27,875 bases of DNA from a virus (Duplodnaviria; Caudoviricetes). The position numbers were made by a program, and so were the translations under genes. Below, one piece after another: positions 16,068 to 27,875 of the stretch; position 1 is the first letter of the stretch, and every line of letters starts with the position of its first letter. The notes below the pieces were generated by a model. The model made no database searches. It saw only the letters and a list, made by a program, of their open reading frames with translations, and was not told the origin of the DNA. The DNA is taken from the IMG/VR virus record IMGVR_UViG_3300026187_000072, positions 1 to 27,875 of that record, one strand, 5' to 3'.

Positions 16068-17126
16068 ATGTCTAGTTTGCTTACCCAATTGGGTCAAAAA
16101 ACCAAAGTAGAGCTTGATAAGAAGCTTGCCCTCGCAGGAGGAACAATGACCGGAGCTTTGACGCTCTCAGGTGCTCCTACTGATTCCCTTCACGCTGCCA
16201 CTAAGGCTTATGTAGATTCAGTATCTTCTACTGTTTCTGGTCTTCAAACAGAACTTGACGCTACTCAAGCTGGTGCTGGTCTTGGTACTGACGGTGCTTA
16301 CAGTGCTAACGGTTCGACCAACTATCTCGGTTCTGTTGCCAGCCTTAAAGCTGCTGACGAAGCTCTTGATAGCCAACTTAAAACTGTTGCTGACGCTGTT
16401 GCTTCTAACGATACCGACATCTCCAGTCTTCAGTCCAGCGTTAGTTCCAACGACAGTGACATCAGCTCACTTCAATCTGACGTTTCAACTGCTCAGTCCG
16501 ACATCTCTACTCTTCAATCGAACGTAAGCTCGAATGATAGTGACATCGCTACTTTGCAATCCAATGTGTCGTCTAATGACAGTGATATTTCTTCACTTCA
16601 ATCTGATGTTAGCACTTTGCAAAGTAATGTCTCTTCGAATGATTCGGACATCTCCACCCTTCAAAGCAATGTATCCAGCAACGACAGCGACATCTCTGCT
16701 CTGCAAACTCAAGCTGGTTCCCTTGCTGCCGACGGTAACTCCGCTTCCTTCTCCGGTAACATCAGTGCTGCCAACGCTACATTCAGCGGTAACTTGACTG
16801 TTAATGGTACTACGACTTCCGTAAACACCACTAACATCGATGTAACTGACAGCATCATGAACCTTTCTAAAGGTGCTGCTTCCGGTACTAACGCTTCGAA
16901 TGACGGTGGTTTCATCGTTGAGCGTGGTTCTTCCGAAAGCAATGTTGCTCTGGTGTGGGATGAAGGCGAAGATAAATTTGCCGTCTACACAACTTCAGCA
17001 ACTGCTGCTGCTACCGATATTTCGTCAACAGACGGATCGGCTGCTCTTGCAGACTTCGATGCTAACTTGTATCACAACGGAGTTGAACTTGGAACAGTTT
17101 CCGAGTTCGAAGCTGCTTTAAGCTAA
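16068..17126 (+). CDS. Coiled-coil fibre/decoration protein (352 aa)
   Basis: GGTMTGALTL/ATKAYVD fibre motif; long SSNDSDI-LQSNV heptad repeats; GNLTVNGTTT-VN and G---ERG----A--WDE--DKF motifs of marine phage fibres. Confidence 0.75.
   Translation: MSSLLTQLGQKTKVELDKKLALAGGTMTGALTLSGAPTDSLHAATKAYVDSVSSTVSGLQTELDATQAGAGLGTDGAYSANGSTNYLGSVASLKAADEALDSQLKTVADAVASNDTDISSLQSSVSSNDSDISSLQSDVSTAQSDISTLQSNVSSNDSDIATLQSNVSSNDSDISSLQSDVSTLQSNVSSNDSDISTLQSNVSSNDSDISALQTQAGSLAADGNSASFSGNISAANATFSGNLTVNGTTTSVNTTNIDVTDSIMNLSKGAASGTNASNDGGFIVERGSSESNVALVWDEGEDKFAVYTTSATAAATDISSTDGSAALADFDANLYHNGVELGTVSEFEAALS
16398..16712 (+). repeat. Coding tandem repeat, 7/14-aa units (SSNDSDI / S-LQSNV)
   Basis: Six SND(S/T)DI copies interleaved with xxLQS(N/D/S)V heptads. 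Confidence 0.9.
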
Positions 17127-17224: not shown

Positions 17225-17461
17225 ATGTTATCACACCAAGAGGCATCGAAGCTGCACGATAAGGTAGCTCAAGCATATAGACATAGCATCGAGTTAATGG
17301 AAGCCGAAGGCGAATTTAACGCGGCACTGCTCAATGGGGCAAGACAACTCCTTAAAGATAATAATATAGTAATGGATAGCGGAGTAGGTTCACCGTTAGA
17401 GGCTTTGAATAACACAGTGATTAATGTACCCTTTGGGGAAGACGATGCAGCTGAAGCTTAA
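17225..17461 (+). CDS. terS: Terminase small subunit (T7 gp18-like)
   Basis: LH--VA, AA-LN-ARQ-LKDN-I and SPL--L---VPF motifs; upstream of TerL. Confidence 0.85.
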   Translation: MLSHQEASKLHDKVAQAYRHSIELMEAEGEFNAALLNGARQLLKDNNIVMDSGVGSPLEALNNTVINVPFGEDDAAEA

Positions 17462-18146
17462 GTTATTTAAAGATAGCCTAGAAAAGTATAAACATACTAA
17501 AGGTATACTTAAAGGAAGGCTTAACCAAGAAGCCCTACAAACAGGTAAAGCTAGAAGAACTTTTAGTAGAGGTAACCCACATCCTACAGTAGATGGTTTG
17601 TTTTATATACAGTGGAGTAAAGGTAAAGAAAGATGGGGAGATTCAGAAACACTGAAAAATTACATAGCTACTCAGACTGCATACAATAAAACAGATAAAA
17701 GAAGAGCTTACTTACACGCTTTCAATAGATCAGAGCAGGAAAAATTTAGGAAAGAAAAGTGGCGTACATCAGAAAAAGGTAAAGATTATTATAAAAAATA
17801 CCAAACCGAATACCAAAAAACACCAAAGATGAAGAAGTATATGGCTGAATGGTTTAGGTCTGATAAGGGAAAAGAATTACAAAGATACCACGCAGGTAAA
17901 AAAAGAGCTATAAAACTTAAAGCTAGTGAAGGTTTAACAAAAGAACACGAGGGTGTTATAAAACAAATTTATTCACACTGTGCACGAATCTCCGAAAAGC
18001 TTCAAATACCTTTCGAGGTAGACCATATAGTACCTCTATCAATAGGAGGCTTACACCACCCTAGTAATTTACAGATTGCACCTGCTAATTGGAACCGTAG
18101 TAAAGGAAACCGTAACACCGAGAGATGGCTACCAAACGGAATGTAA
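17445..18146 (+). CDS. HNH homing endonuclease
   Basis: C-terminal FEVDHIVPL--GGLH-P-NLQI-----NRSKGN; start taken at the second Met (track start 17424); overlaps terS and terL. Confidence 0.88.
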   Translation: MQLKLKLFKDSLEKYKHTKGILKGRLNQEALQTGKARRTFSRGNPHPTVDGLFYIQWSKGKERWGDSETLKNYIATQTAYNKTDKRRAYLHAFNRSEQEKFRKEKWRTSEKGKDYYKKYQTEYQKTPKMKKYMAEWFRSDKGKELQRYHAGKKRAIKLKASEGLTKEHEGVIKQIYSHCARISEKLQIPFEVDHIVPLSIGGLHHPSNLQIAPANWNRSKGNRNTERWLPNGM

Positions 18147-19813
18147 TAGTACCTCCGCAGTTAAAGAACTTTAAGAACTTCGTATACCTGGTATGGAAGC
18201 ATCTGAACCTGCCGGACCCTACCCCCTTACAGTACTCTATCTGCGACTACCTACAGCACGGTCCTAAGCGTAGTATAGTGATGGCGTTCCGTGGGTGCGG
18301 GAAGAGTTGGATTACATCAGCTTATGTAGTGTGGGAGTTGTTACTTGATCCTTCTAAAAACATTCTTGTTGTGTCTGCATCTAAAAACCGGGCAGACGAC
18401 TTCAGTACATTCGTGCTACGACTGATACAGGAGATGCCTGTGTTACAACATTTAAAACCTAACGAGAATCAAAGGTTTAGTAAACTATCGTTTGATGTTG
18501 GTCCAGCCGGAGCTTCTCATGCACCCTCCGTTAAGAGCCTTGGTATAACATCACAGTTAACTGGTAGTCGTGCTGACATTATTATTTGCGATGATATAGA
18601 GGTGGCTAACAATGCAGCTACACAAGGTATGAGGGATAAGCTATCTGAGCAGGTAAAAGAAACAGATGCTATCATAAAACCATTAGATACTTCTAAGATT
18701 ATATTCCTTGGTACTCCACAGACAGAAGAGAGTGTTTACCAGAAGCTTCGAGAAAGGGGCTACAAGGCATCTATATGGCCTTCTGAGTATCCAAAGGAGT
18801 CTGATGTGGCTAACATATACGGAGACGATTTATCGCCCTTTGTCGGAAATAACATAACAGAAGAGACAATAGGTACATCAACAGAGCCTGGTAGGTTCAC
18901 TGATTTAGATTTAGAGGAAAGGAAGCTATCCTACGGTCGCAGCGGTTACTCTCTACAGTTCTTACTGAATCCTAGACTTAGCGACCAAGATAGATACCCA
19001 CTAAAGATAAACGACTTAATAGTTATGGATGTCGATGTGGAGGTTGCTTACGAGAAAGTTATTTGGTCTTCTGATATAGCTAACGCTGATCTATCTCTAC
19101 CTAATGTAGGATTCAATGGAGATCGCTATAAAAGACCTAGCAGTACAACGGGTGACTTAATACCGTACACAGGTAGTGTTATGAGTATTGACCCATCCGG
19201 TAGAGGTGGAGACGAGACTGGTTACGCTGTTGTGTGTATGTTGAATGGTTATCTGTATGTACCGGAAGCAGGAGGTCTTAAAGGCGGGTACAGCGAACAA
19301 ACACTAAAGGAACTTGTTGATATAGCTAAACGAAACAAAGTTAACAAGATCGTAGTAGAAAGTAACTTTGGTGACGGTATCTTTACTGAACTTATTAAAC
19401 CTTTGTTTAGAACAACATACCCTGTAACAATAGAGGAGGTACGACACTCTAAGCAAAAGGAGCTACGGATCATAGATACTTTAGAACCAGTGCTTAACGC
19501 TCATAGACTTATTGTTGATCCTAAAGTTATTAAGCATGACTATCAGTCTGCTCTTAGCTACCCTATAGAAAAACAAGCTTATTACCAACTGTTTCATCAA
19601 CTATCTCGTATAACAAAAGAAAGAGGTAGTATAACACACGATGATAGATTAGACGCTTTAGCTATTGCTGTTGCTTATTGGACAGAACAGATGGCTGCTT
19701 CAGCTGATAGAAACATGTTAGAAAGAAAACAGGAGCTGCTACAGGAAGAGTTAACAAAGTTTACTGATAGCTTTCATAAAAGGAATAACAAAGTTTCTGT
19801 AACTTGGATATAG
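18125..19813 (+). CDS. terL: Terminase large subunit (T7 gp19-like)
   Basis: AFRG-GKSWIT Walker A, LTGSRADIII-DDIE Walker B, LGTPQ, IDPSGRG-DETG, ESNFGDG, HDDRLDAL nuclease motifs. Confidence 0.97.
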   Translation: MATKRNVIVPPQLKNFKNFVYLVWKHLNLPDPTPLQYSICDYLQHGPKRSIVMAFRGCGKSWITSAYVVWELLLDPSKNILVVSASKNRADDFSTFVLRLIQEMPVLQHLKPNENQRFSKLSFDVGPAGASHAPSVKSLGITSQLTGSRADIIICDDIEVANNAATQGMRDKLSEQVKETDAIIKPLDTSKIIFLGTPQTEESVYQKLRERGYKASIWPSEYPKESDVANIYGDDLSPFVGNNITEETIGTSTEPGRFTDLDLEERKLSYGRSGYSLQFLLNPRLSDQDRYPLKINDLIVMDVDVEVAYEKVIWSSDIANADLSLPNVGFNGDRYKRPSSTTGDLIPYTGSVMSIDPSGRGGDETGYAVVCMLNGYLYVPEAGGLKGGYSEQTLKELVDIAKRNKVNKIVVESNFGDGIFTELIKPLFRTTYPVTIEEVRHSKQKELRIIDTLEPVLNAHRLIVDPKVIKHDYQSALSYPIEKQAYYQLFHQLSRITKERGSITHDDRLDALAIAVAYWTEQMAASADRNMLERKQELLQEELTKFTDSFHKRNNKVSVTWI

Positions 19814-19829
19814 CTTCTATAACAAACCT

Positions 19830-20330
19830 TGTTCACTTCGTTCTCATCGCTATTGCTCACTTCGTTCACCAATAGCTCTCTTTAGTAGATATATATAGGT
19901 GCTGTTGTAGTTAGTTTAAATACACTAAGTATAGTAGCTATACCTTGAAAATCTGAAGTTAGACTTTTAATTTACATGGTTTATTTATAAACACAATTAT
20001 CCTTAAAAACCTAAGTTAAAGTGTTAGTATCAGTCTCTTTGTTAAAGTAACAGCGAAAGAACGGATGTATGAGCTGTTCAACAACGCTGAACTGATATGA
20101 GGTAGCTGAAGCTAACTTTGGTTTAGTCTTTGTAGTGTTAACGGAAAAGAAGCTATAAAAGCAATAGCAGCTATACTACTCTAAAGTAATTGCTTGTATA
20201 CTTACCCTTGATTAATACATTGAGGATCGTTTAAAACGAACTCTAAAGTACATATCTAAATATCATTATTATACAAAGTAACAGCCGAAGGAAGCGTGTA
20301 AAGCATAAAAGTTAAAACATCAGTGTTTAA
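19830..20330. repeat. Non-coding region with short direct repeats near the genome end
   Basis: TCACTTCGTTC x2 (about 19833, 19856), AAAGTAACAGC x2 (about 20044, 20275), CTCTAAAGTA x2 (about 20179, 20241). Confidence 0.6.
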
Positions 20331-20396
20331 CAGGGGTACAGCAGGGTGTGAGAAAAAGCTACCAAAACATCTCGAAACAGAGTATACTTATAACAC

Positions 20397-20612
20397 ATGC
20401 ATATAGATGACCAAACAGACACCTTCCAGTACGAACTGGCAAAGCTCATATACCGCTTTAAAAGAGAGTACGATCTTAACGACTACACAATAGCTGGGTG
20501 TTTAGACTTTGCTAAGCTGTCTGTACTAACTGAAACAGATGATGTTATCTTTACACCCGATGAGGAAATACTAGATGAAGAAGACACCGACACCTTTGAC
20601 CCACAGTTCTGA
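20397..20612 (+). CDS. Hypothetical protein (71 aa, acidic tail)
   Basis: Open frame with AT-rich leader after the non-coding block. Confidence 0.7.
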   Translation: MHIDDQTDTFQYELAKLIYRFKREYDLNDYTIAGCLDFAKLSVLTETDDVIFTPDEEILDEEDTDTFDPQF

Positions 20613-20817
20613 CGAAGCCCTTGACCTTCCGATCATACGGATCGTCTCAACAGAAGATGAGATGTTTACCAAGATGAACCTGGAGATGGAAGATGAAACC
20701 CATAAAATGCTTGTTAAATGGGGCAAAGAGGTAGCATCCGATGAAGACTATATAAGCATAGCTATAACAGCTGGTATAGAAGAGTATGTAGATGCCTTAG
20801 ATAACAAGCAAAAATAG
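20575..20817 (+). CDS. Hypothetical protein, possible ribbon-helix-helix DNA-binding fold
   Basis: KMNLEME alternating strand followed by two amphipathic helices; start uncertain. Confidence 0.55.
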   Translation: MKKTPTPLTHSSDEALDLPIIRIVSTEDEMFTKMNLEMEDETHKMLVKWGKEVASDEDYISIAITAGIEEYVDALDNKQK

Positions 20818-20823
20818 GTGCTT

Positions 20824-20906
20824 CAAAAGGTTTTGGTAGAAAAATCTGAGAGGCTTATGATGAGCATTACCAAAAAGATTTGGTGAAAAAATGCGAGACA
20901 CTTACG
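20824..20906 (+). repeat. Imperfect tandem duplication, about 35 bp
   Basis: CAAAAGGTTTTGGTAGAAAAATCTGAGAGGCTTA versus CAAAAAGATTTGGTGAAAAAATGCGAGACACTTA. Confidence 0.7.
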
Positions 20907-20955
20907 CTATATACGCGTGCGTTAATTACCCCCGCATACCCGTAAGTATTTTATA

Positions 20956-20963
20956 GGGGAGGG
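20956..20963 (+). other. KOPS-consensus octamer (GGGNAGGG)
   Basis: GGGGAGGG, oriented toward the dif-like site 16 bp downstream. Confidence 0.4.
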
Positions 20964-20979
20964 GGATATTGTTATACTA

Positions 20980-21007
20980 ATTAGACATAATGTTTATTAT
21001 GCGAATA
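20980..21007 (-). other. dif: dif-like XerC/XerD recombination site
   Basis: Minus strand TATTCGCATAA-TAAACA-TTATGTCTAAT; 11-6-11 layout versus E. coli dif GGTGCGCATAA-TGTATA-TTATGTTAAAT (XerD arm 9/11; inner CGCATAA of XerC arm identical). Confidence 0.8.
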
Positions 21008-21237
21008 GTGACTATGTTGATAATCAGTAACTTATGAAAGTCTAAGCTGTGATGTTGTAAAAACATAATAAAACTGCATCAATTATTTTCGCAAATCAAC
21101 AGAGATTGTTAGCGTTTTGCGTCATCAGTCTATGGCTTTTGTTAGTCGCCTTAATGCAATCTTCTTGCGATTGGTCTTGTATTTGTTTTTCTTCTTCAAA
21201 GTTCTTTTTTCATTTTAAATTGAAACGATTGAAAGAT

Positions 21238-21258
21238 TGAGATTGAGTCTCAGTATCA
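21238..21258. promoter_or_regulatory. Fur-box-like operator
   Basis: Two 7-1-7 elements offset by 6 bp (TGAGATTGAGTCTCA, TGAGTCTCAGTATCA), each 10/14 to TGATAAT-N-ATTATCA. Confidence 0.5.
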
Positions 21259-21312
21259 ATTAGCAATTACTTTCTGCCCTATCAAATTGTGAATAACTTT
21301 TTTTAGATTGTG

Positions 21313-21341
21313 TTGACAAGCGATTCAAATTCGTTCAATAG
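21313..21341 (+). promoter_or_regulatory. Putative host-RNAP early promoter
   Basis: Perfect TTGACA with upstream T-tract; the -10 at 17 bp (CAATAG) is weak; sits before the first early ORF. Confidence 0.45.
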
Positions 21342-21387
21342 GTGAGATCAGCAAGGCAATTCCGCTTTGTTATAACTACTACTACTA

Positions 21388-21702
21388 ATGAATAAAGAAA
21401 CTATCGAATCAGTACGCCATGAAGTCAGAGAGCTTCAGTTATGGATTGAAAACACTAGCACTTATTACGAACGCTTTCTTGTTCCGATTGCAAAGAGCTT
21501 TCAACGCAAGATCAAAAAGAATACCTTTGACATGACTAAAGCTCCTAAAACTTATTATGCTGTTTGCTTGTTAGCTTCTAATGATTACAAGGAGCAGTTT
21601 GGATATTCATTTACTAAACTTGTCAGGGACTTAGTAGCACAAAACTTGGCTGAAGAATACCACGCTGAAATTTTAGCACAAAACGGGGAGATGTTCTCAT
21701 GA
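21388..21702 (+). CDS. Hypothetical early protein (104 aa)
   Basis: First ORF of a tightly coupled early cluster. Confidence 0.8.
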   Translation: MNKETIESVRHEVRELQLWIENTSTYYERFLVPIAKSFQRKIKKNTFDMTKAPKTYYAVCLLASNDYKEQFGYSFTKLVRDLVAQNLAEEYHAEILAQNGEMFS

Positions 21703-21785
21703 AACAAAAACTCTTAGATCTCTTAATCATCAACGCAATCTTTGGCTCCTTTTGGCTATTCGCTTTGATCTACTTTACTTCTTAA
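21699..21785 (+). CDS. Small hydrophobic peptide (28 aa), not in ORF track
   Basis: MKQKLLDLLIINAIFGSFWLFALIYFTS*; ATGA overlap with upstream stop. Confidence 0.6.
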   Translation: MKQKLLDLLIINAIFGSFWLFALIYFTS

Positions 21786-21805
21786 TCCTTACCTGACCTT
21801 ACAAA

Positions 21806-22003
21806 ATGAATACTTACATAGAACATAAAAACCTTATTCCTTACTTACTTGAACTTGGATGGATGATTTCCAAGGATACTTGGACGGATTGTCCACAGAA
21901 AGTATACGACAAACTTGCAAAGTTATCCGTGGATGATCTTGAACTTGTTTGCATGGAATACCATAGCGACATTACATCCGATTTAGTTACCAACCTTACA
22001 TGA
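21806..22003 (+). CDS. Hypothetical early protein (65 aa)
   Basis: ORF track; fits the operon. Confidence 0.7.
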   Translation: MNTYIEHKNLIPYLLELGWMISKDTWTDCPQKVYDKLAKLSVDDLELVCMEYHSDITSDLVTNLT

Positions 22004-22007
22004 CCAC

Positions 22008-22142
22008 ATGAATAAACAAATTAAAAATGTAACTGAACATCACTACGGCTTTACAACTAAGTATTTTGTTGAGTATGAAGACGGCTCAACTGAGTGGACT
22101 TATGTTTGTATTAAATCCTATTTACCTTTCATTCAAGAATGA
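22008..22142 (+). CDS. Hypothetical early protein (44 aa), not in ORF track
   Basis: MNKQIKNVTEHHYGFTTKYFVEYEDGSTEWTYVCIKSYLPFIQE*; fills the gap, ATGA overlap with next gene. Confidence 0.6.
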   Translation: MNKQIKNVTEHHYGFTTKYFVEYEDGSTEWTYVCIKSYLPFIQE

Positions 22143-22450
22143 GTGTCACCATCTACCTAACCGATCATAACGGACGAAAGGTTGCTTTCTTCTATCGAAT
22201 AGATAGCGAGCGATACCTTACCTGTCCACAGCTTATATGGGCTTGCCGTCAGCATCCTGAGTATCAAGGCACAGCAGAATCAAAGGAACACTTCATAGAA
22301 CAAGCAAAGAGTGTTATCAAGGAGCTTAATAAAATTTCACAAAATAACCGATCAACTTGTGAAAAAATTCCGTGTGATACTTGTGGGTTGACTTCTCCAA
22401 AAATGGAGGCACAAGATACCTGCCCACAATGCTTAATAAATGACCAGTAA
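22139..22450 (+). CDS. Hypothetical early protein with C-terminal zinc-ribbon-like motif
   Basis: CDTC-x12-CPQC. Confidence 0.7.
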   Translation: MSVTIYLTDHNGRKVAFFYRIDSERYLTCPQLIWACRQHPEYQGTAESKEHFIEQAKSVIKELNKISQNNRSTCEKIPCDTCGLTSPKMEAQDTCPQCLINDQ

Positions 22451-22735: not shown

Positions 22736-22896
22736 AAGAAACCTTATTACAACCGAGCGACATGATTGAAGAATTAATGTACCATATTATGTGGAATGAG
22801 TTTGACGGGGAGCTTGATCCCAACCACAAATACTTTCCACTTTACCTGTCCTTGCAACAGCTACTTGAGGACGAAACCAAACGATTAGAAGAATGA
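22732..22896 (+). CDS. Hypothetical acidic protein (54 aa), not in ORF track
   Basis: MKETLLQPSDMIEELMYHIMWNEFDGELDPNHKYFPLYLSLQQLLEDETKRLEE*; ATGA overlaps at both ends. Confidence 0.7.
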   Translation: MKETLLQPSDMIEELMYHIMWNEFDGELDPNHKYFPLYLSLQQLLEDETKRLEE

Positions 22897-23702
22897 GTGT
22901 ACCGAAGAAATACATCTATCAAAGTGGTGCTAACAAAGGAAAGATAAACTTAGCGTTGGTTCAAACAGGATTACCTGACCGCAGACGAGGCGACAAGCAT
23001 CCACACATAACCGGATTGTTCTTCATAACTTACCGAAACGGACGCAAGAATCCAGAGCAGTGGGGTAGTTACGCAAGCTTACAGAAACTAATAGAAAAGA
23101 ATCGAAAGCATAAGCTGTTAAACCCTGAGTATTACCGAGATAAAAGAAGGAAGTATATTGCACAGCATCCTGAAAGAATCAAAGAGACTAACCGAAAGTC
23201 CAAAGCTAAGAGACGGGCTGAAGGAAAAGAGCAAGCGTACAAGAAGTTGTACAACAAAGCTAATCCAGGTGTTATTGCTGAGATTAACAGGAAGCAAAGG
23301 CTTAAGCGTAAAGAGAACGGCAAGACACAGGCTTACAACCAACAAGACCACATCAGAATTGACCGAGCTTTACGGAGCCGTCTTAACAACGCTATTAAAG
23401 ATGGTAACAAGTCTGCTAAAAGTATCGAGTTATTTGGTGCTAGTCCGTTACAAATTAAAGCACACCTTGAGTCTCAGTTTACAGAAGGAATGTCTTGGGA
23501 TAACTACGGAGAGTGGCATATCGATCACATTATTCCGTGTGCATTCTTTGACATGACTAAACCGAGCCACCAAAAGGTATGTTTTAACTGGCAGAACTTA
23601 CAACCACTTTGGGCTGAAGAAAACCGAAGTAAATCCGATAAGATTCCGTGGTATGTTTTATTGACAATCTTAATGAACAACTACAAAACCATAACGGTAT
23701 GA
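22893..23702 (+). CDS. HNH-type endonuclease (LE-QF---MSW-NYG-WHIDHI-P subtype)
   Basis: LRSRL...HLESQFTEGMSWDNYGEWHIDHIIPC--FD-----Q--CF---NLQPLWA-EN-SK-DK. Confidence 0.88.
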   Translation: MSVPKKYIYQSGANKGKINLALVQTGLPDRRRGDKHPHITGLFFITYRNGRKNPEQWGSYASLQKLIEKNRKHKLLNPEYYRDKRRKYIAQHPERIKETNRKSKAKRRAEGKEQAYKKLYNKANPGVIAEINRKQRLKRKENGKTQAYNQQDHIRIDRALRSRLNNAIKDGNKSAKSIELFGASPLQIKAHLESQFTEGMSWDNYGEWHIDHIIPCAFFDMTKPSHQKVCFNWQNLQPLWAEENRSKSDKIPWYVLLTILMNNYKTITV

Positions 23703-23934: not shown

Positions 23935-24177
23935 ATGTACCCTGAGAATCATATCGTCCAAGGCATAGCTAGACACGATCTGGATTACAGTTCCATAGAT
24001 CATAAGGCTATCAACGATGGCTTCCAACAGTTTTGGATGATGACTGAGATTTACGGGTTCGAACGGAATAAGGACGGGACATACAAAAGGACAGAGGACG
24101 GACGCTTGATTGCTATTCGTTCTAACCGTCCAAGGATGAAGCCAAAAGGTAACTTTGATTGGTTTGAGAATCTATGA
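23935..24177 (+). CDS. Hypothetical protein (80 aa)
   Basis: ORF track; ATGA overlap with RNAP start. Confidence 0.7.
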   Translation: MYPENHIVQGIARHDLDYSSIDHKAINDGFQQFWMMTEIYGFERNKDGTYKRTEDGRLIAIRSNRPRMKPKGNFDWFENL

Positions 24178-26495
24178 GTGGGCATGTAGCTAAGATGAGG
24201 GAGTGGGGACGGACGCAGTACCGTAACCGACAAGCCAAGCTGAGGCAGGAGGGGGAGAGTAGTCACACAGCATCGTGTAAGCGTATGTTGCAGAGTATGT
24301 GCCCGAAGTTAGGTGACCGTGTCAAGCACATCATCGATCAGTTCTCCGGTCCAGGATACACGACACCACTTTACCTGACCTTTGTCATGGATATGTGTCC
24401 GTATGAGATTGCTGTTATTGCTTTGCGTACCTTCCTCAACAACTTAGACAACCACTTAGCGATTGGTAAGATGGGGTACAGGATTGGAAAAGCATTTGAG
24501 AATGAAGCTCGGTGGAAGTATGCATTGGAGAACCTGAGTCTTAACAAACAAGACTTGTTAGCTATACCTGACCGTAAGAAACAGAGTAAGATCAAGCAGT
24601 TTTATAAGTATGAAGATGTCCGTTTTGAATTGTGGCATCACAAGGCTAAGGTTGGTTTAGGATTGTGGTTGTTGGAGGAGATACGCCAGCAAACTGGTCT
24701 GTTCAAAGTGGGTATGCGTGATAGTGTGAGCAGTAAGATGCCTGAACGCTTTGTATTACCTACTACTGAGTTTAAAGATTGGATACATCGCTTTGATAAG
24801 TGGAAGGAGGCGGGGCAAGTATTTAAGATGGCATTACCTGACCGACCTGTTGAGTGGCACGGATTGATGGGTGGTGGATACGATATAGAACAACTGCCTC
24901 CACAGACTTTCTTCACGGGGAAACCTGTTGAGTGGTTTGAAGGGAATAACTACGACCATGTCATGTCTGCTGTTAATAAACTTCAGAAGGTGGAGTGGCA
25001 GATCAATACGGATATGTTAGATATTACATTGAAGTGTTGGGAGAATGAGAGAGTAGTAGGAAACATTCCTAACTTTGGAGAGATACCAGAGCAACCATAC
25101 TATACAGGTGGCGATGAACAGGAGTTGAGTGTTTGGAAGTTAAAACAAAAAGATATTAAACAGACCAACGCTAGTAACAGCTCTAAAAGATACCAAGCTT
25201 GTCGTGTTTTACACTTAGCTAAGATGTACAGTAAGTGGGACAAGTTATACTTTCCGTATCGTTGTGATTACAGGGGTAGAGTGTACGCTATTCCGTACTA
25301 CTTACATCCACAAGGTTCCGATTTAGCTAAGAGTTTGTTAGACTTTAAGAATGGTCAGCAAGTAGTGGATGAGGAGGATGTTATGTCGATATTTGTCCAC
25401 GGTGCGAACATGTGGGGAGTAAAAGGTACACGGGATGAACGTATTGAGTGGGTAGGTAAGAGACAGAATTTTATCCTTGAAGCAGCGAATGATCCACACG
25501 GAAGCGATTGGTGGACGGAAGCTAGTGATCCGTTTTGTTTCCTGAGATTCTGTTTAGAGTTTAAGAAGTTTACGGAGGAAGGGTACGGATATGTTAGCTA
25601 TCTACCTGTTCGTCAGGACTGTAGTAATAATGGTATGCAGATACTGAGTTTGTTATTACGAGACAAAGACACGGGACGGATGTGTAACCTGGTAGAAGAA
25701 GACAAAGCTAATGATATGTATCAATATGTAGCAGATCGTATACACAATGAGCTAGTAAAAGATGGTGGTGTTATAGCTAAGACTTGGATGCAGTACGGTA
25801 TCAAAAGAAAGATAGCTAAGATGGCAGTGATGAACCGCCCGTACGGAGCTACTAGTTATAACTTGGTACAGGATTTATTTAAAAGTATAGGAGTTAATCA
25901 TCCGTGGAGTAGTACAGGCGAGATGTTAACTGCTGTTATATGGATCAGTAATATCATTAACACGATAGCTGATGAAGTGTGTGAACCAGTGAAGAAAGTG
26001 ATGAGGTATTTACGAGATACTATCAAATGCTTACCTAACGAAAACGGTATTACTTGGACTACACCTACAGGATTTAAAGTTAAACAGAAATTCCGTAAGT
26101 ACAAGAAGGTAGATTTAGAATCTGTATTTGATAACACTACTGTATATGTACGCACTCACACTGAGACGGATGAGGTAGATACCAAGCACCACGGCAACGC
26201 AGTGACTGCTAACTTTATCCACAGCTTAGACGCTTGCATCGTACATCAAGTTGCTAATGAGGTTGACTTTGACTTGGCTACTATACATGACTGCTTTGTG
26301 ACCCACGCTTGTAATGTACGAAGAATGAATACAATTGTACGAGAAACATATGCAAAGACATTTTCTGTTGATCTCCTGACTGAGTTCCGAATGGAGCAAA
26401 TCAACAACAACCCGACCGCAGAACTTCCATCCGTGCCGGAGCTTGGAGACTTAGATGTCTCCGCAGTAAAGCGTATGAAGTATCTGTTGTCTTAA
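24174..26495 (+). CDS. gp1: T7-like single-subunit DNA-directed RNA polymerase
   Basis: D-RGRVY, PQGSD--K-LL, motif A QDCSNNGMQ, motif B RKIAKMAVMNRPYG, NFIHSLDA, motif C IHDCF. Confidence 0.97.
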   Translation: MSGHVAKMREWGRTQYRNRQAKLRQEGESSHTASCKRMLQSMCPKLGDRVKHIIDQFSGPGYTTPLYLTFVMDMCPYEIAVIALRTFLNNLDNHLAIGKMGYRIGKAFENEARWKYALENLSLNKQDLLAIPDRKKQSKIKQFYKYEDVRFELWHHKAKVGLGLWLLEEIRQQTGLFKVGMRDSVSSKMPERFVLPTTEFKDWIHRFDKWKEAGQVFKMALPDRPVEWHGLMGGGYDIEQLPPQTFFTGKPVEWFEGNNYDHVMSAVNKLQKVEWQINTDMLDITLKCWENERVVGNIPNFGEIPEQPYYTGGDEQELSVWKLKQKDIKQTNASNSSKRYQACRVLHLAKMYSKWDKLYFPYRCDYRGRVYAIPYYLHPQGSDLAKSLLDFKNGQQVVDEEDVMSIFVHGANMWGVKGTRDERIEWVGKRQNFILEAANDPHGSDWWTEASDPFCFLRFCLEFKKFTEEGYGYVSYLPVRQDCSNNGMQILSLLLRDKDTGRMCNLVEEDKANDMYQYVADRIHNELVKDGGVIAKTWMQYGIKRKIAKMAVMNRPYGATSYNLVQDLFKSIGVNHPWSSTGEMLTAVIWISNIINTIADEVCEPVKKVMRYLRDTIKCLPNENGITWTTPTGFKVKQKFRKYKKVDLESVFDNTTVYVRTHTETDEVDTKHHGNAVTANFIHSLDACIVHQVANEVDFDLATIHDCFVTHACNVRRMNTIVRETYAKTFSVDLLTEFRMEQINNNPTAELPSVPELGDLDVSAVKRMKYLLS

Positions 26496-26516: not shown

Positions 26517-26768
26517 GTGAGTAGAAAAAGTAAAACACTAACAGAAGAACAGAAAAAACAAGTGAGGTTAAATCCACCATTCATGCTTAATAGTTTTGAA
26601 GTAGCTGCATTGACAAATAAAAATGTCAAGTCAGTTAGGGAATGGATGAATGAGCCTGATTTTCCGTTATTGCGTGGTCCAGCTAAGAACTCTGAGATGC
26701 ATGTACTTAGAGATGAGTTAGTAAATTGGATGACGAAAAGAAATAAAAAAGCAGAAGTTACTGCATAA
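26517..26768 (+). CDS. Xis/AlpA/MerR-like helix-turn-helix DNA-binding protein
   Basis: L---EVA-L-------VREW-----FP ... V-RDEL--W pattern; GTG start. Confidence 0.6.
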   Translation: MSRKSKTLTEEQKKQVRLNPPFMLNSFEVAALTNKNVKSVREWMNEPDFPLLRGPAKNSEMHVLRDELVNWMTKRNKKAEVTA

Positions 26769-26785
26769 CACCGATAGATAAAACA

Positions 26786-27415
26786 ATGAGTATAAAAGCA
26801 CGAAAGAAACACGAGATTATTAAAGCTAAAGGAGTGGCTAAGTACTGTCACTTAAATGAACCAAACAAAAAGTTTGATCCAGAGTTTGGTGTGTACAGCT
26901 GTGATCTCATCATCGATAAAGCACAAGCAGACGCTATCAAACAGCAGCTTCGTCCGTTGTACGAGGAAGAGCTAAGAGCAACACAAGAAGCTAATCCTGG
27001 TAAAGGTATCACACAGCGTGAGTTTCCGATTGAGGAAGTGGATGGTGGATTCTTAATTAAAGCAAAGATCAAAGCTGGAGGACGACGCAAAGATGGTGAA
27101 GTATATCACATGTCGATTGCACTGTACGATTCCCAAGGTAAACATCTTGATCCGGAAGTAAAAGTCTGGGGTGGTAGTACAGTAAATGTAGCTTTCCGTC
27201 CGAGGTTTTGGTACACAGCATCAATGGGTTTCGGAGTTACCTTTGATCTGCAAGCAGTACAAGTCCTACAATTGGGAGAAGGTGGAGTATCCAGCATCGC
27301 AGCATCTGCATTTGGATTCACTACTGAAGAAGAAGGATTTGTTAATGGCGGTGAAAACTTAGAGGGTGGATTCGATGCGGAAGAAACGGAAGAAGAGGTC
27401 ATCGCCAACTTCTAA
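26786..27415 (+). CDS. gp2.5: Single-stranded DNA-binding protein (T7 gp2.5-like)
   Basis: G-AKY-HL-EP--KF, YDSQGK, VWGGS, GV---LQAVQV--L, acidic tail ending in F. Confidence 0.92.
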   Translation: MSIKARKKHEIIKAKGVAKYCHLNEPNKKFDPEFGVYSCDLIIDKAQADAIKQQLRPLYEEELRATQEANPGKGITQREFPIEEVDGGFLIKAKIKAGGRRKDGEVYHMSIALYDSQGKHLDPEVKVWGGSTVNVAFRPRFWYTASMGFGVTFDLQAVQVLQLGEGGVSSIAASAFGFTTEEEGFVNGGENLEGGFDAEETEEEVIANF

Positions 27416-27875
27416 GTACCGCTCTGGATTCGAACAAACCTTAGCTAACCAGCTACAGCGTAGTGGTGTTGCCTTTGAGTACGAAACAATCAAGTTAGAG
27501 TATCAGAAGATAGCTACTTACACTCCCGACTTCATACTACCTAACGGCATCATCATTGAAGCTAAAGGTGTGTGGACGGTGGAGGATCGAACGAAGCATT
27601 TACTAGTACGAGAACAACATCCACACCTAGACATCCGTCTCGTATTTATGAATGCTTACAATAAGATTCGGAAAGGAAGCAACACCACATACGCTCGTTG
27701 GTGCGAAAAGAAAAACATAATATATGCAAATAAACAAATACCGAAATCATGGCTTTCACCAACACACACCAACCCTGCCCTAAGTGCGGATCAAGTGATG
27801 CAAGAGCCACTAACGACGACGGAAGCTGGCATTGTTTCAGCTGTAACCGTCACGATGGAGGAGGAGGACGAGTGA
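27366..27875 (+). CDS. gp3: Endonuclease I / Holliday junction resolvase (T7 gp3-like)
   Basis: YRSGFE, YTPDFILPNGIIIEAKG, DR-KHLLV-EQHP-LDIR-VF, Y--WCEK, IP-SWL; start may be the ATG at 27375; TGA at 27873-27875. Confidence 0.95.
   Translation: MDSMRKKRKKRSSPTSKYRSGFEQTLANQLQRSGVAFEYETIKLEYQKIATYTPDFILPNGIIIEAKGVWTVEDRTKHLLVREQHPHLDIRLVFMNAYNKIRKGSNTTYARWCEKKNIIYANKQIPKSWLSPTHTNPALSADQVMQEPLTTTEAGIVSAVTVTMEEEDE
27749..27875 (+). CDS. gp4: Primase-helicase N-terminal zinc-binding domain (T7 gp4-like), partial; not in ORF track
   Basis: MAFTNTHQPCPKCGSSDARATNDDGSWHCFSCNRHDGGGGRV...: H-PC--CGSSD...DG--HCF-C Cys4 zinc ribbon. Confidence 0.9.
   Translation, partial: MAFTNTHQPCPKCGSSDARATNDDGSWHCFSCNRHDGGGGRV

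Follow-up and report, generated by a model that had tools for sequence, protein, structure and literature searches.

The phage and its genome-end region

The window analysed here, a stretch of 27,875 nucleotides, is a 27.9 kb fragment of a T7-like phage in which tail and core genes, a terminase, small early open reading frames (ORFs), an RNA polymerase, SSB and endonuclease I were recognized. For the T7-like class, both the single-subunit RNA polymerase and the T7 gene order are present, and identity to the nearest relatives in GenBank is about 30% for the polymerase and 62% for the terminase. The genomes of relatives span 37–42 kb. Between the terminase and the small early ORFs lies a largely non-coding stretch, which harbours most of the features listed in Table 1.

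Table 1. Coordinates of the features discussed in the text, numbered from the first letter of the window
Feature	Positions	Strand	Remarks
Terminase small subunit (17225–17461), HNH gene and terminase large subunit (18125–19813)	17225–19813	+	
71-residue ORF	20397–20612	+	No known family; beside the dif-type site in the clade; site-independent anchor
Terminus motif AAAAATGCGA with C-tract (20929–20941)	20887–20941	+	Motif ends at 20896; a second copy ends at 20849
Putative direct terminal repeat	20896–21180	+	Placed by homology; right edge provisional; 246–281 bp in three reference phages
G-rich octamer fitting the KOPS consensus	20956–20963	+	Within a G-tract conserved in the end region of the genome; not linked to the XerD arm
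dif-type XerCD core site	20980–21007	−	XerC-type arm 20997–21007, spacer 20991–20996 (TAAACA), XerD-type arm 20980–20990
IHF-consensus-like motif	21022–21034	+	One mismatch
T7-type RNA polymerase	24174–26495	+	No integrase family found between the dif-type site and this gene
T7-type endonuclease I (Holliday-junction resolvase family)	27366–27875	+	Candidate resolver of an XerC-made junction

Two HNH-type endonuclease genes are present (17424–18146 and 22893–23702), the first of which sits between the two terminase subunit genes. An 83-residue excisionase-like HTH gene follows 3′ of the RNA polymerase (26517–26768; phrog_66, E = 5.5e-5); it was considered as a component of the system described below and discarded, being found at only four of the 88 loci that hold both flanking genes. 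A promoter scan returned nine candidates against 8.0 expected, and the repeats near the dif-type site were unremarkable.

No recombinase family was found among 29 ORFs of the window. Since the window is an incomplete genome, the absence of an integrase leans on the relatives: PF00589 was detected in none of five relatives of 34.6–41.7 kb, four of them at least 90% complete, and a PHROG scan of 61 ORFs from two complete relatives (of 84 listed, the remainder being core genes or overlapping frames) revealed a lytic gene set and no integrase, repressor, partition or replication-initiator family. The lack of an integrase in the window, reported in an earlier note made from the sequence alone, was thus upheld, and in these relatives it extends to a tyrosine recombinase encoded elsewhere in the genome.

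A dif-type site matching the chromosomal dif of Opitutia

The minus strand of the non-coding segment 20980–21007 reads TATTCGCATAA TAAACA TTATGTCTAAT, a 28 bp sequence with an 11-6-11 layout. Its core pattern, RCATAA-N6-TTATGY, occurs once in the window, against an expectation of 0.01. The arms lie one mismatch from the host consensus described below and the best match in 200 first-order Markov resamples of the window lies four mismatches away, a control that is partly circular, as the host consensus was found through a pattern derived from the phage sites. Read again, the sequence fits its earlier description as a non-coding dif-like XerCD site, and the site is real, far beyond chance. Three near-complete relatives carry a single full site each. 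Searches of GenBank phage DNA with the site gave only matches at E ≥ 0.4.

Scanning half of the genome collection with the pattern TTCGCAYAA-N6-TTATGTCTAAT yielded 120 loci, 115 of them from Verrucomicrobiota, of which 89 are named Opitutia. Octamers of the form GGGNAGGG converge on these loci from both flanks (139:5 and 112:4), and each of five genomes searched whole contains one copy of the pattern; the loci are therefore chromosomal dif sites. Among five such genomes, XerD scored over the cut-off in four and FtsK-gamma in all five. The strong polarity of GGGNAGGG around Opitutia dif indicates that it is probably the host KOPS. dif had previously been predicted for three Verrucomicrobia (Kono et al., 2011; PMC3025954).

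The phage site shares with Opitutia dif the 11-6-11 layout and an identical XerD arm, while the core of its XerC arm is off by one base; unlike the chromosomal sites, it lies on a phage and is not flanked by convergent KOPS. The suggestion that matching arms and spacer to bacterial dif sites would predict the host proved fruitful, and the sequence match makes Opitutia (Verrucomicrobiota) the likely host class, a well supported inference. The host-type spacer TATRYA is found at 85 of the 120 host loci, and in a marine Opitutales family, 66 of whose 76 genomes carry the site, the spacers divide into TATGCA (41), TATACA (12), TATGTA (7) and others (6) by our own count of the table. The spacer of the window, TAAACA, occurs at eight of the 120 host loci and in none of the 66 genomes of the marine family; its mismatch to the host is central (position 3). 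At three host dif loci (L164, L171 and L249) an extra lone XerD-type arm is found 70–1040 nt away, which could be a remnant of Xer-integrated elements.

Conservation and drift among relatives

Relatives were anchored on the 71-residue gene, so that their selection was independent of the site. From 192 loci with this gene, 17 were too short and were dropped, and the 175 left represent 92 distinct end regions. A dif-type site is present in 88 of these, in a further one the XerC arm is good and the XerD arm has decayed, and three are without the site; the conservation of the 28-mer, which the earlier note had left to be checked, is thereby established. The groups of L099, L419 and L441 are site-less close relatives, with an anchor gene 90–96% identical, and represent natural deletion variants, while L131, L134, L421 and L444 keep the XerC arm next to a decayed XerD arm. 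The polymerases of the clade diverge to about 31% identity. Most relatives with terminases at 61–65% identity are without the site; among such distant T7-like phages, L009, L011/L012 and L022 have an Opitutia-type site shortly after the terminus motif. In two relatives (G403, position 16262; G404, position 16307) a second perfect or near-perfect XerD-type arm that has the spacer TATATA and lacks an XerC arm lies in the tail-gene region.

Within the site the XerD arm is almost invariant and the XerC arm less so, and the 57 distinct 28-mers contain 20 different spacers. Both the 6 bp spacing and the bases flanking the cleavage points are maintained. Most of the 57 sites are host-like at spacer positions 1 (50), 2 (53) and 6 (52), and several spacers, such as CATTGA, CATCAC and CTGGTG, mismatch the host at both ends. 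The orientation of the site has switched at least 18 times on the tree of the flanks.

Of the 30 phage sites whose spacer is of the host type (TATRYA), 26 show changes in the arms, spread over many positions; of the 27 with a different spacer, 19 have arms of consensus sequence. This association between spacer type and arm quality (Fisher p = 1e-5; for independent pairs taken from supported branches, the median p is 0.02 and the range 0.02–0.18) is indicative only, given that T was accepted at two positions of a consensus arm and that the region is mosaic, which also makes the tree-based test a rough correction. None of the 57 phage sites equals the site with TATGCA, TATACA or TATGTA, the three commonest of the marine Opitutales family, and two equal a host-type site with the spacer TATATA. 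Judged from these indicative sequence comparisons, the phage sites tend to avoid an exact copy of the host site, through a changed spacer or a changed arm.

The G-rich octamer

In the window, the octamer GGGGAGGG (plus strand) faces the XerD-type arm across 16 nt. In Opitutia, GGGNAGGG is strongly polarized around dif. The geometry in the window had led to the proposal that XerD at the phage site is activated by FtsK loaded at the neighbouring KOPS. This geometry was seen as described; as a design feature it did not survive comparison with relatives. Such octamers occur three times in the window against 1.08 expected, and at least three were obtained in nine of 100 shuffles, so that the octamer by itself is not above chance. 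The G-tract that contains it is faced by the XerD arm in 41 of the 88 distinct relatives and by the XerC arm in 47, and the octamer fits GGGNAGGG in 39 of the 88, namely in 21 of the 41 with the orientation of the window and in 18 of the 47 with the opposite one. The octamer is also retained in the site-less relatives L099 and L419. Away from the site, KOPS in 748 kb of phage DNA are unpolarized (seven toward the site and eight away), and the polarity toward the site on the XerD side that characterizes FtsK-activated dif, evident in the host control, is lacking. The octamer is best read as a piece of the variable G-tract of the end region; a KOPS-to-XerD design was rejected on these grounds, and activation by FtsK loaded at this octamer is very improbable.

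Position within a putative terminal repeat

The terminus motif and the C-tract that follows it mark the start of the terminal repeat in Lo5R7ANS, vRsoP-WF2 and ProddE and the start of the record in RHEph21, which opens inside the motif; CRP-114 has the motif in a record opened elsewhere. In Lo5R7ANS a repeat of 246 bp, recognized by comparing the record ends, begins at the motif itself; in vRsoP-WF2 the repeat (281 bp, with an annotation at either end) begins 7 nt past the motif, and in ProddE (271 bp, labelled as predicted) 15 nt past it. Alignment of these repeat starts leads to window positions 20895–20903, and we infer a left genome end at about 20895–20911. In all 88 distinct relatives the site starts 72–174 nt past the terminus motif, with its far edge within 202 nt. 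If the repeat of the window phage is similar in length to those of the reference phages, the site would be a direct repeat present at both virion ends; its location inside the terminal repeat is thus probable, as placed by homology to phages of other hosts.

Assemblies were uninformative on this point. Contig ends in 201 distinct loci with the end motif do not cluster, and in four runs the contigs covering 19700–22300 span the site with no joint there, although contigs cannot show ends or rare junctions. End repeats of 127 bp in G404 and G406 were discarded as termini: their start is distant from the terminus region and they are likely to be overlaps left by the assembler, which is probably also true of a 99 bp repeat in OR062943.

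Close to the site lies a match, with one mismatch, to the IHF consensus. An exact match is found within 70 nt of the site in 57 of the 88 relatives, against a background of 0.03 in a stretch of equal length; counted from the start of the site it lies at +36/37 or +41/42, often as a palindromic pair. This motif, the free orientation and the free spacer, which fit any reaction of a site with its own copy, might be reconciled with a circular episome whose single site resolves dimers in the manner of cer and psi on plasmids, possibly with IHF as an accessory factor. In cer and psi, about 180 bp of accessory sequence lies beside the XerC arm, whereas the IHF-like motif near the phage site tracks the direction of the genome and not one particular arm, and it occurs with one mismatch in the repeats of site-less reference phages. 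Because the motif tracks genome direction, IHF is not favoured as a Xer accessory; it may have a role in packaging or transcription. The two complete relatives have no partition, replication-initiator or repressor family, and an episome would leave the fixed place next to the terminus unexplained, all of which makes this reading quite unlikely.

The in-repeat position had gone unseen in the earlier note; as deduced from homology, it favours recombination between the phage's own copies of the site.

Search for integrated copies

The earlier note had proposed that host XerCD, together with FtsK, are borrowed by the phage, integration at dif being one of the outcomes considered. A borrowing of XerCD is consistent with the conserved, host-type core site and the lack of a phage recombinase; integration found no support. 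If the site were the attP of an integrative element exploiting Xer (IMEX), the phage would circularize, XerCD would insert it into the host dif and the altered spacer or arm would stabilize the prophage. The attP sites known so far depart from dif either in the spacer (VGJ) or in the XerD arm (TLC and GGI) (PMC5357621). The VGJ class is defined by a spacer that differs on the XerD side and the TLC class by a degenerate XerD arm together with an activator; among the phage sites, departures in the spacer and in the arm both occur, along with sites that fit neither class. No element-encoded recombinase was found in the relatives, in keeping with an IMEX, the window itself being incomplete. The mostly host-like spacer positions 1, 2 and 6 and the central mismatch of the window spacer are also compatible with integration, and T7-like phages of SAR11 lysogenize (10.1101/410191), which by analogy offers a precedent.

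No T7-like genes were found beside dif at the 120 host loci, 80 of which had flanks of up to 6 kb, and all 164 phage loci run on into phage DNA past the site, none of them matching the host loci. Terminase searches of Opitutales genomes gave two matches in 401, one in 76 and one in 101 (overlapping sets); those in G357 and G468 are T7-like and belong to distant T7-like contigs without the site, and a third, in G020, is weak. The anchor gene was absent from all 401 genomes of the class. The spacers that mismatch the host at both ends and the absence of a repressor family from two complete relatives also count against integration. A search for prophages at host dif therefore found no integrated copy; these negatives are weak, as the phage loci seem to come mostly from virus-rich samples and MAGs lose prophages. 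In gokushoviruses, dif motifs vary in the spacer and the XerD arm and yet integrate, and fewer than 100 prophages are reported in more than 100,000 genomes (PMC7062461); because gokushoviruses display both, spacer drift and missing prophages are compatible with integration, which we consider unlikely.

The attP sites of VGJ-phi, TLC-phi and GGI (PMC5357621, PMC9226527) and the gokushovirus motifs (PMC7062461) resemble the phage site in belonging to integrase-free elements and in departing from the host site in spacer or arm. The window clade differs in consisting of tailed dsDNA phages with a lytic gene set, no integrated copy found and a site beside the genome end; it lacks a single attP architecture, and where an arm is altered, it is the XerC arm in most cases. 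Temperate Autographiviridae (HTVC019P-type pelagiphages, LUZ100 and ProddE) share with it the gene order, RNA polymerase and terminus motif, whereas their integrase and attP upstream of the RNA polymerase were not found in the window phage or its relatives. At three mismatches, no dif match was detected in ProddE, Lo5R7ANS, vRsoP-WF2 or RHEph21.

Sites in other tailed phages

A scan of viral contigs with the dif pattern returned 119 loci, 76 of which were examined with long flanks, two of these being from host genomes. Of the 76, 28 are not T7-like, and in 25 of the 28 the site lies within 361 nt of an HTH gene that usually adjoins a terminase. These include a second tailed group (L310, L343, L332, L336, L279, L285 and others), in which an Opitutia-type dif lies beside the HTH gene, a putative small terminase, and the large terminase; its spacers are mostly non-host (GATCCA, TAGTGA and CATGCT). 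Two contigs of this group, L538 (G409:C82) and L539 (G434:C241), occur in Opitutales assemblies that hold an intact host dif and are not integrated at it. Their spacers are TAATGA and CATGTT, against TATACA and TATGCA in the host, and each contig forms a candidate phage–host pair with its assembly.

A further parallel is offered by the rV5-like coliphages (Vequintavirus), of which Gotham and Murica have a dif-pattern site with the spacer TGGGTA. This spacer presumably differs from that of the chromosomal dif of E. coli. In Gotham the match lies at 175–193, within a 459 bp repeat annotated at both ends. These are unrelated myoviruses of E. coli, with the site about 170 nt from the end. The 459 bp terminal repeats have been published, and the available part of the Gotham genome paper does not mention a dif in them (PMC7471380). 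A literature search of mostly freely accessible papers, main texts only, found no account of a dif lying in the terminal repeat of a phage or carried by a T7-like phage.

Proposed role and implications

The explanation that we favour, at somewhat under an even chance, is that host XerC and XerD recombine two copies of the site, so that the phage genome is circularized or sister genomes are linked head to tail, the bounds of the repeat, the binding of Xer proteins and the product all being presumptive. Packaged DNA would carry a near-copy of dif at both ends, within the direct terminal repeat, and host XerCD would bind both ends of one genome, or those of sister genomes, giving a circle or a head-to-tail concatemer. 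The likeliest route would be an XerC-first exchange without guidance by FtsK, finished by replication or by the phage endonuclease I, and the departure of the spacer or arms from the host site would limit recombination with the chromosome. Because both copies of one repeat always share spacer and direction, spacer and orientation would be free to drift.

End joining of this kind is supported by the match to the host, the fixed distance to the terminus motif, the occurrence of both orientations, the drift of the spacer and the parallel in Gotham. Against end joining, T7 makes concatemers without a circle and without Xer, three of the 92 distinct relatives lack the site, which is thus dispensable, and the repeat of the clade was located through homology with phages that infect other hosts; of the three repeats used as references, one is labelled as predicted. 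A similar role is played in P1 by Cre and loxP, which circularize incoming phage DNA. As in P1, the window phage would have a tyrosine-recombinase site twice on linear virion DNA and use it for end joining; P1 differs in having its own recombinase and headful packaging, whereas the window phage would use a host enzyme and a short exact repeat. Dimer resolution by Cre/loxP is cited in PMC3556154, and IMEXs and ColE1 offer examples of exchange that begins with XerC, needs no FtsK and is completed by replication or a resolvase (PMC9226527, PMC5357621).

XerCD might also bind the site without completing a crossover and so act as a cap or tether at the ends, obstruct FtsK or exonucleases, or bring in chromosome-segregation proteins of the host. 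The near-invariant XerD arm, set against a free spacer and orientation, the constrained distance from the end and the location of the site beside putative packaging genes in an unrelated phage group would all fit such a function; the conserved 6 bp spacing, the bases kept next to the cleavage points and the covariation of spacer type with arm quality are easier to explain by strand exchange, and binding alone appears an improbable account.

Known hijacking of Xer comprises integration by small non-tailed phages and islands and dimer resolution by plasmids. A dif placed by the DNA end in a large T7-like clade, beside putative packaging genes in a second group associated with Opitutia and in a cultured lytic coliphage points instead to phages processing their own ends. 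More tentatively, it is plausible, if short of probable, that a detuned host dif has come to lie in the terminal repeats of unrelated tailed phages time and again, with host XerCD serving as a Cre/lox-like end-joining enzyme in lytic growth and the T7-like phages of Opitutia as one such lineage. If true, a host-dependent step would be added to the circularization or concatemer formation of phages with terminal repeats. The clade-specific arm, in turn, gives a likely host class for many uncultured aquatic phages of Verrucomicrobiota.
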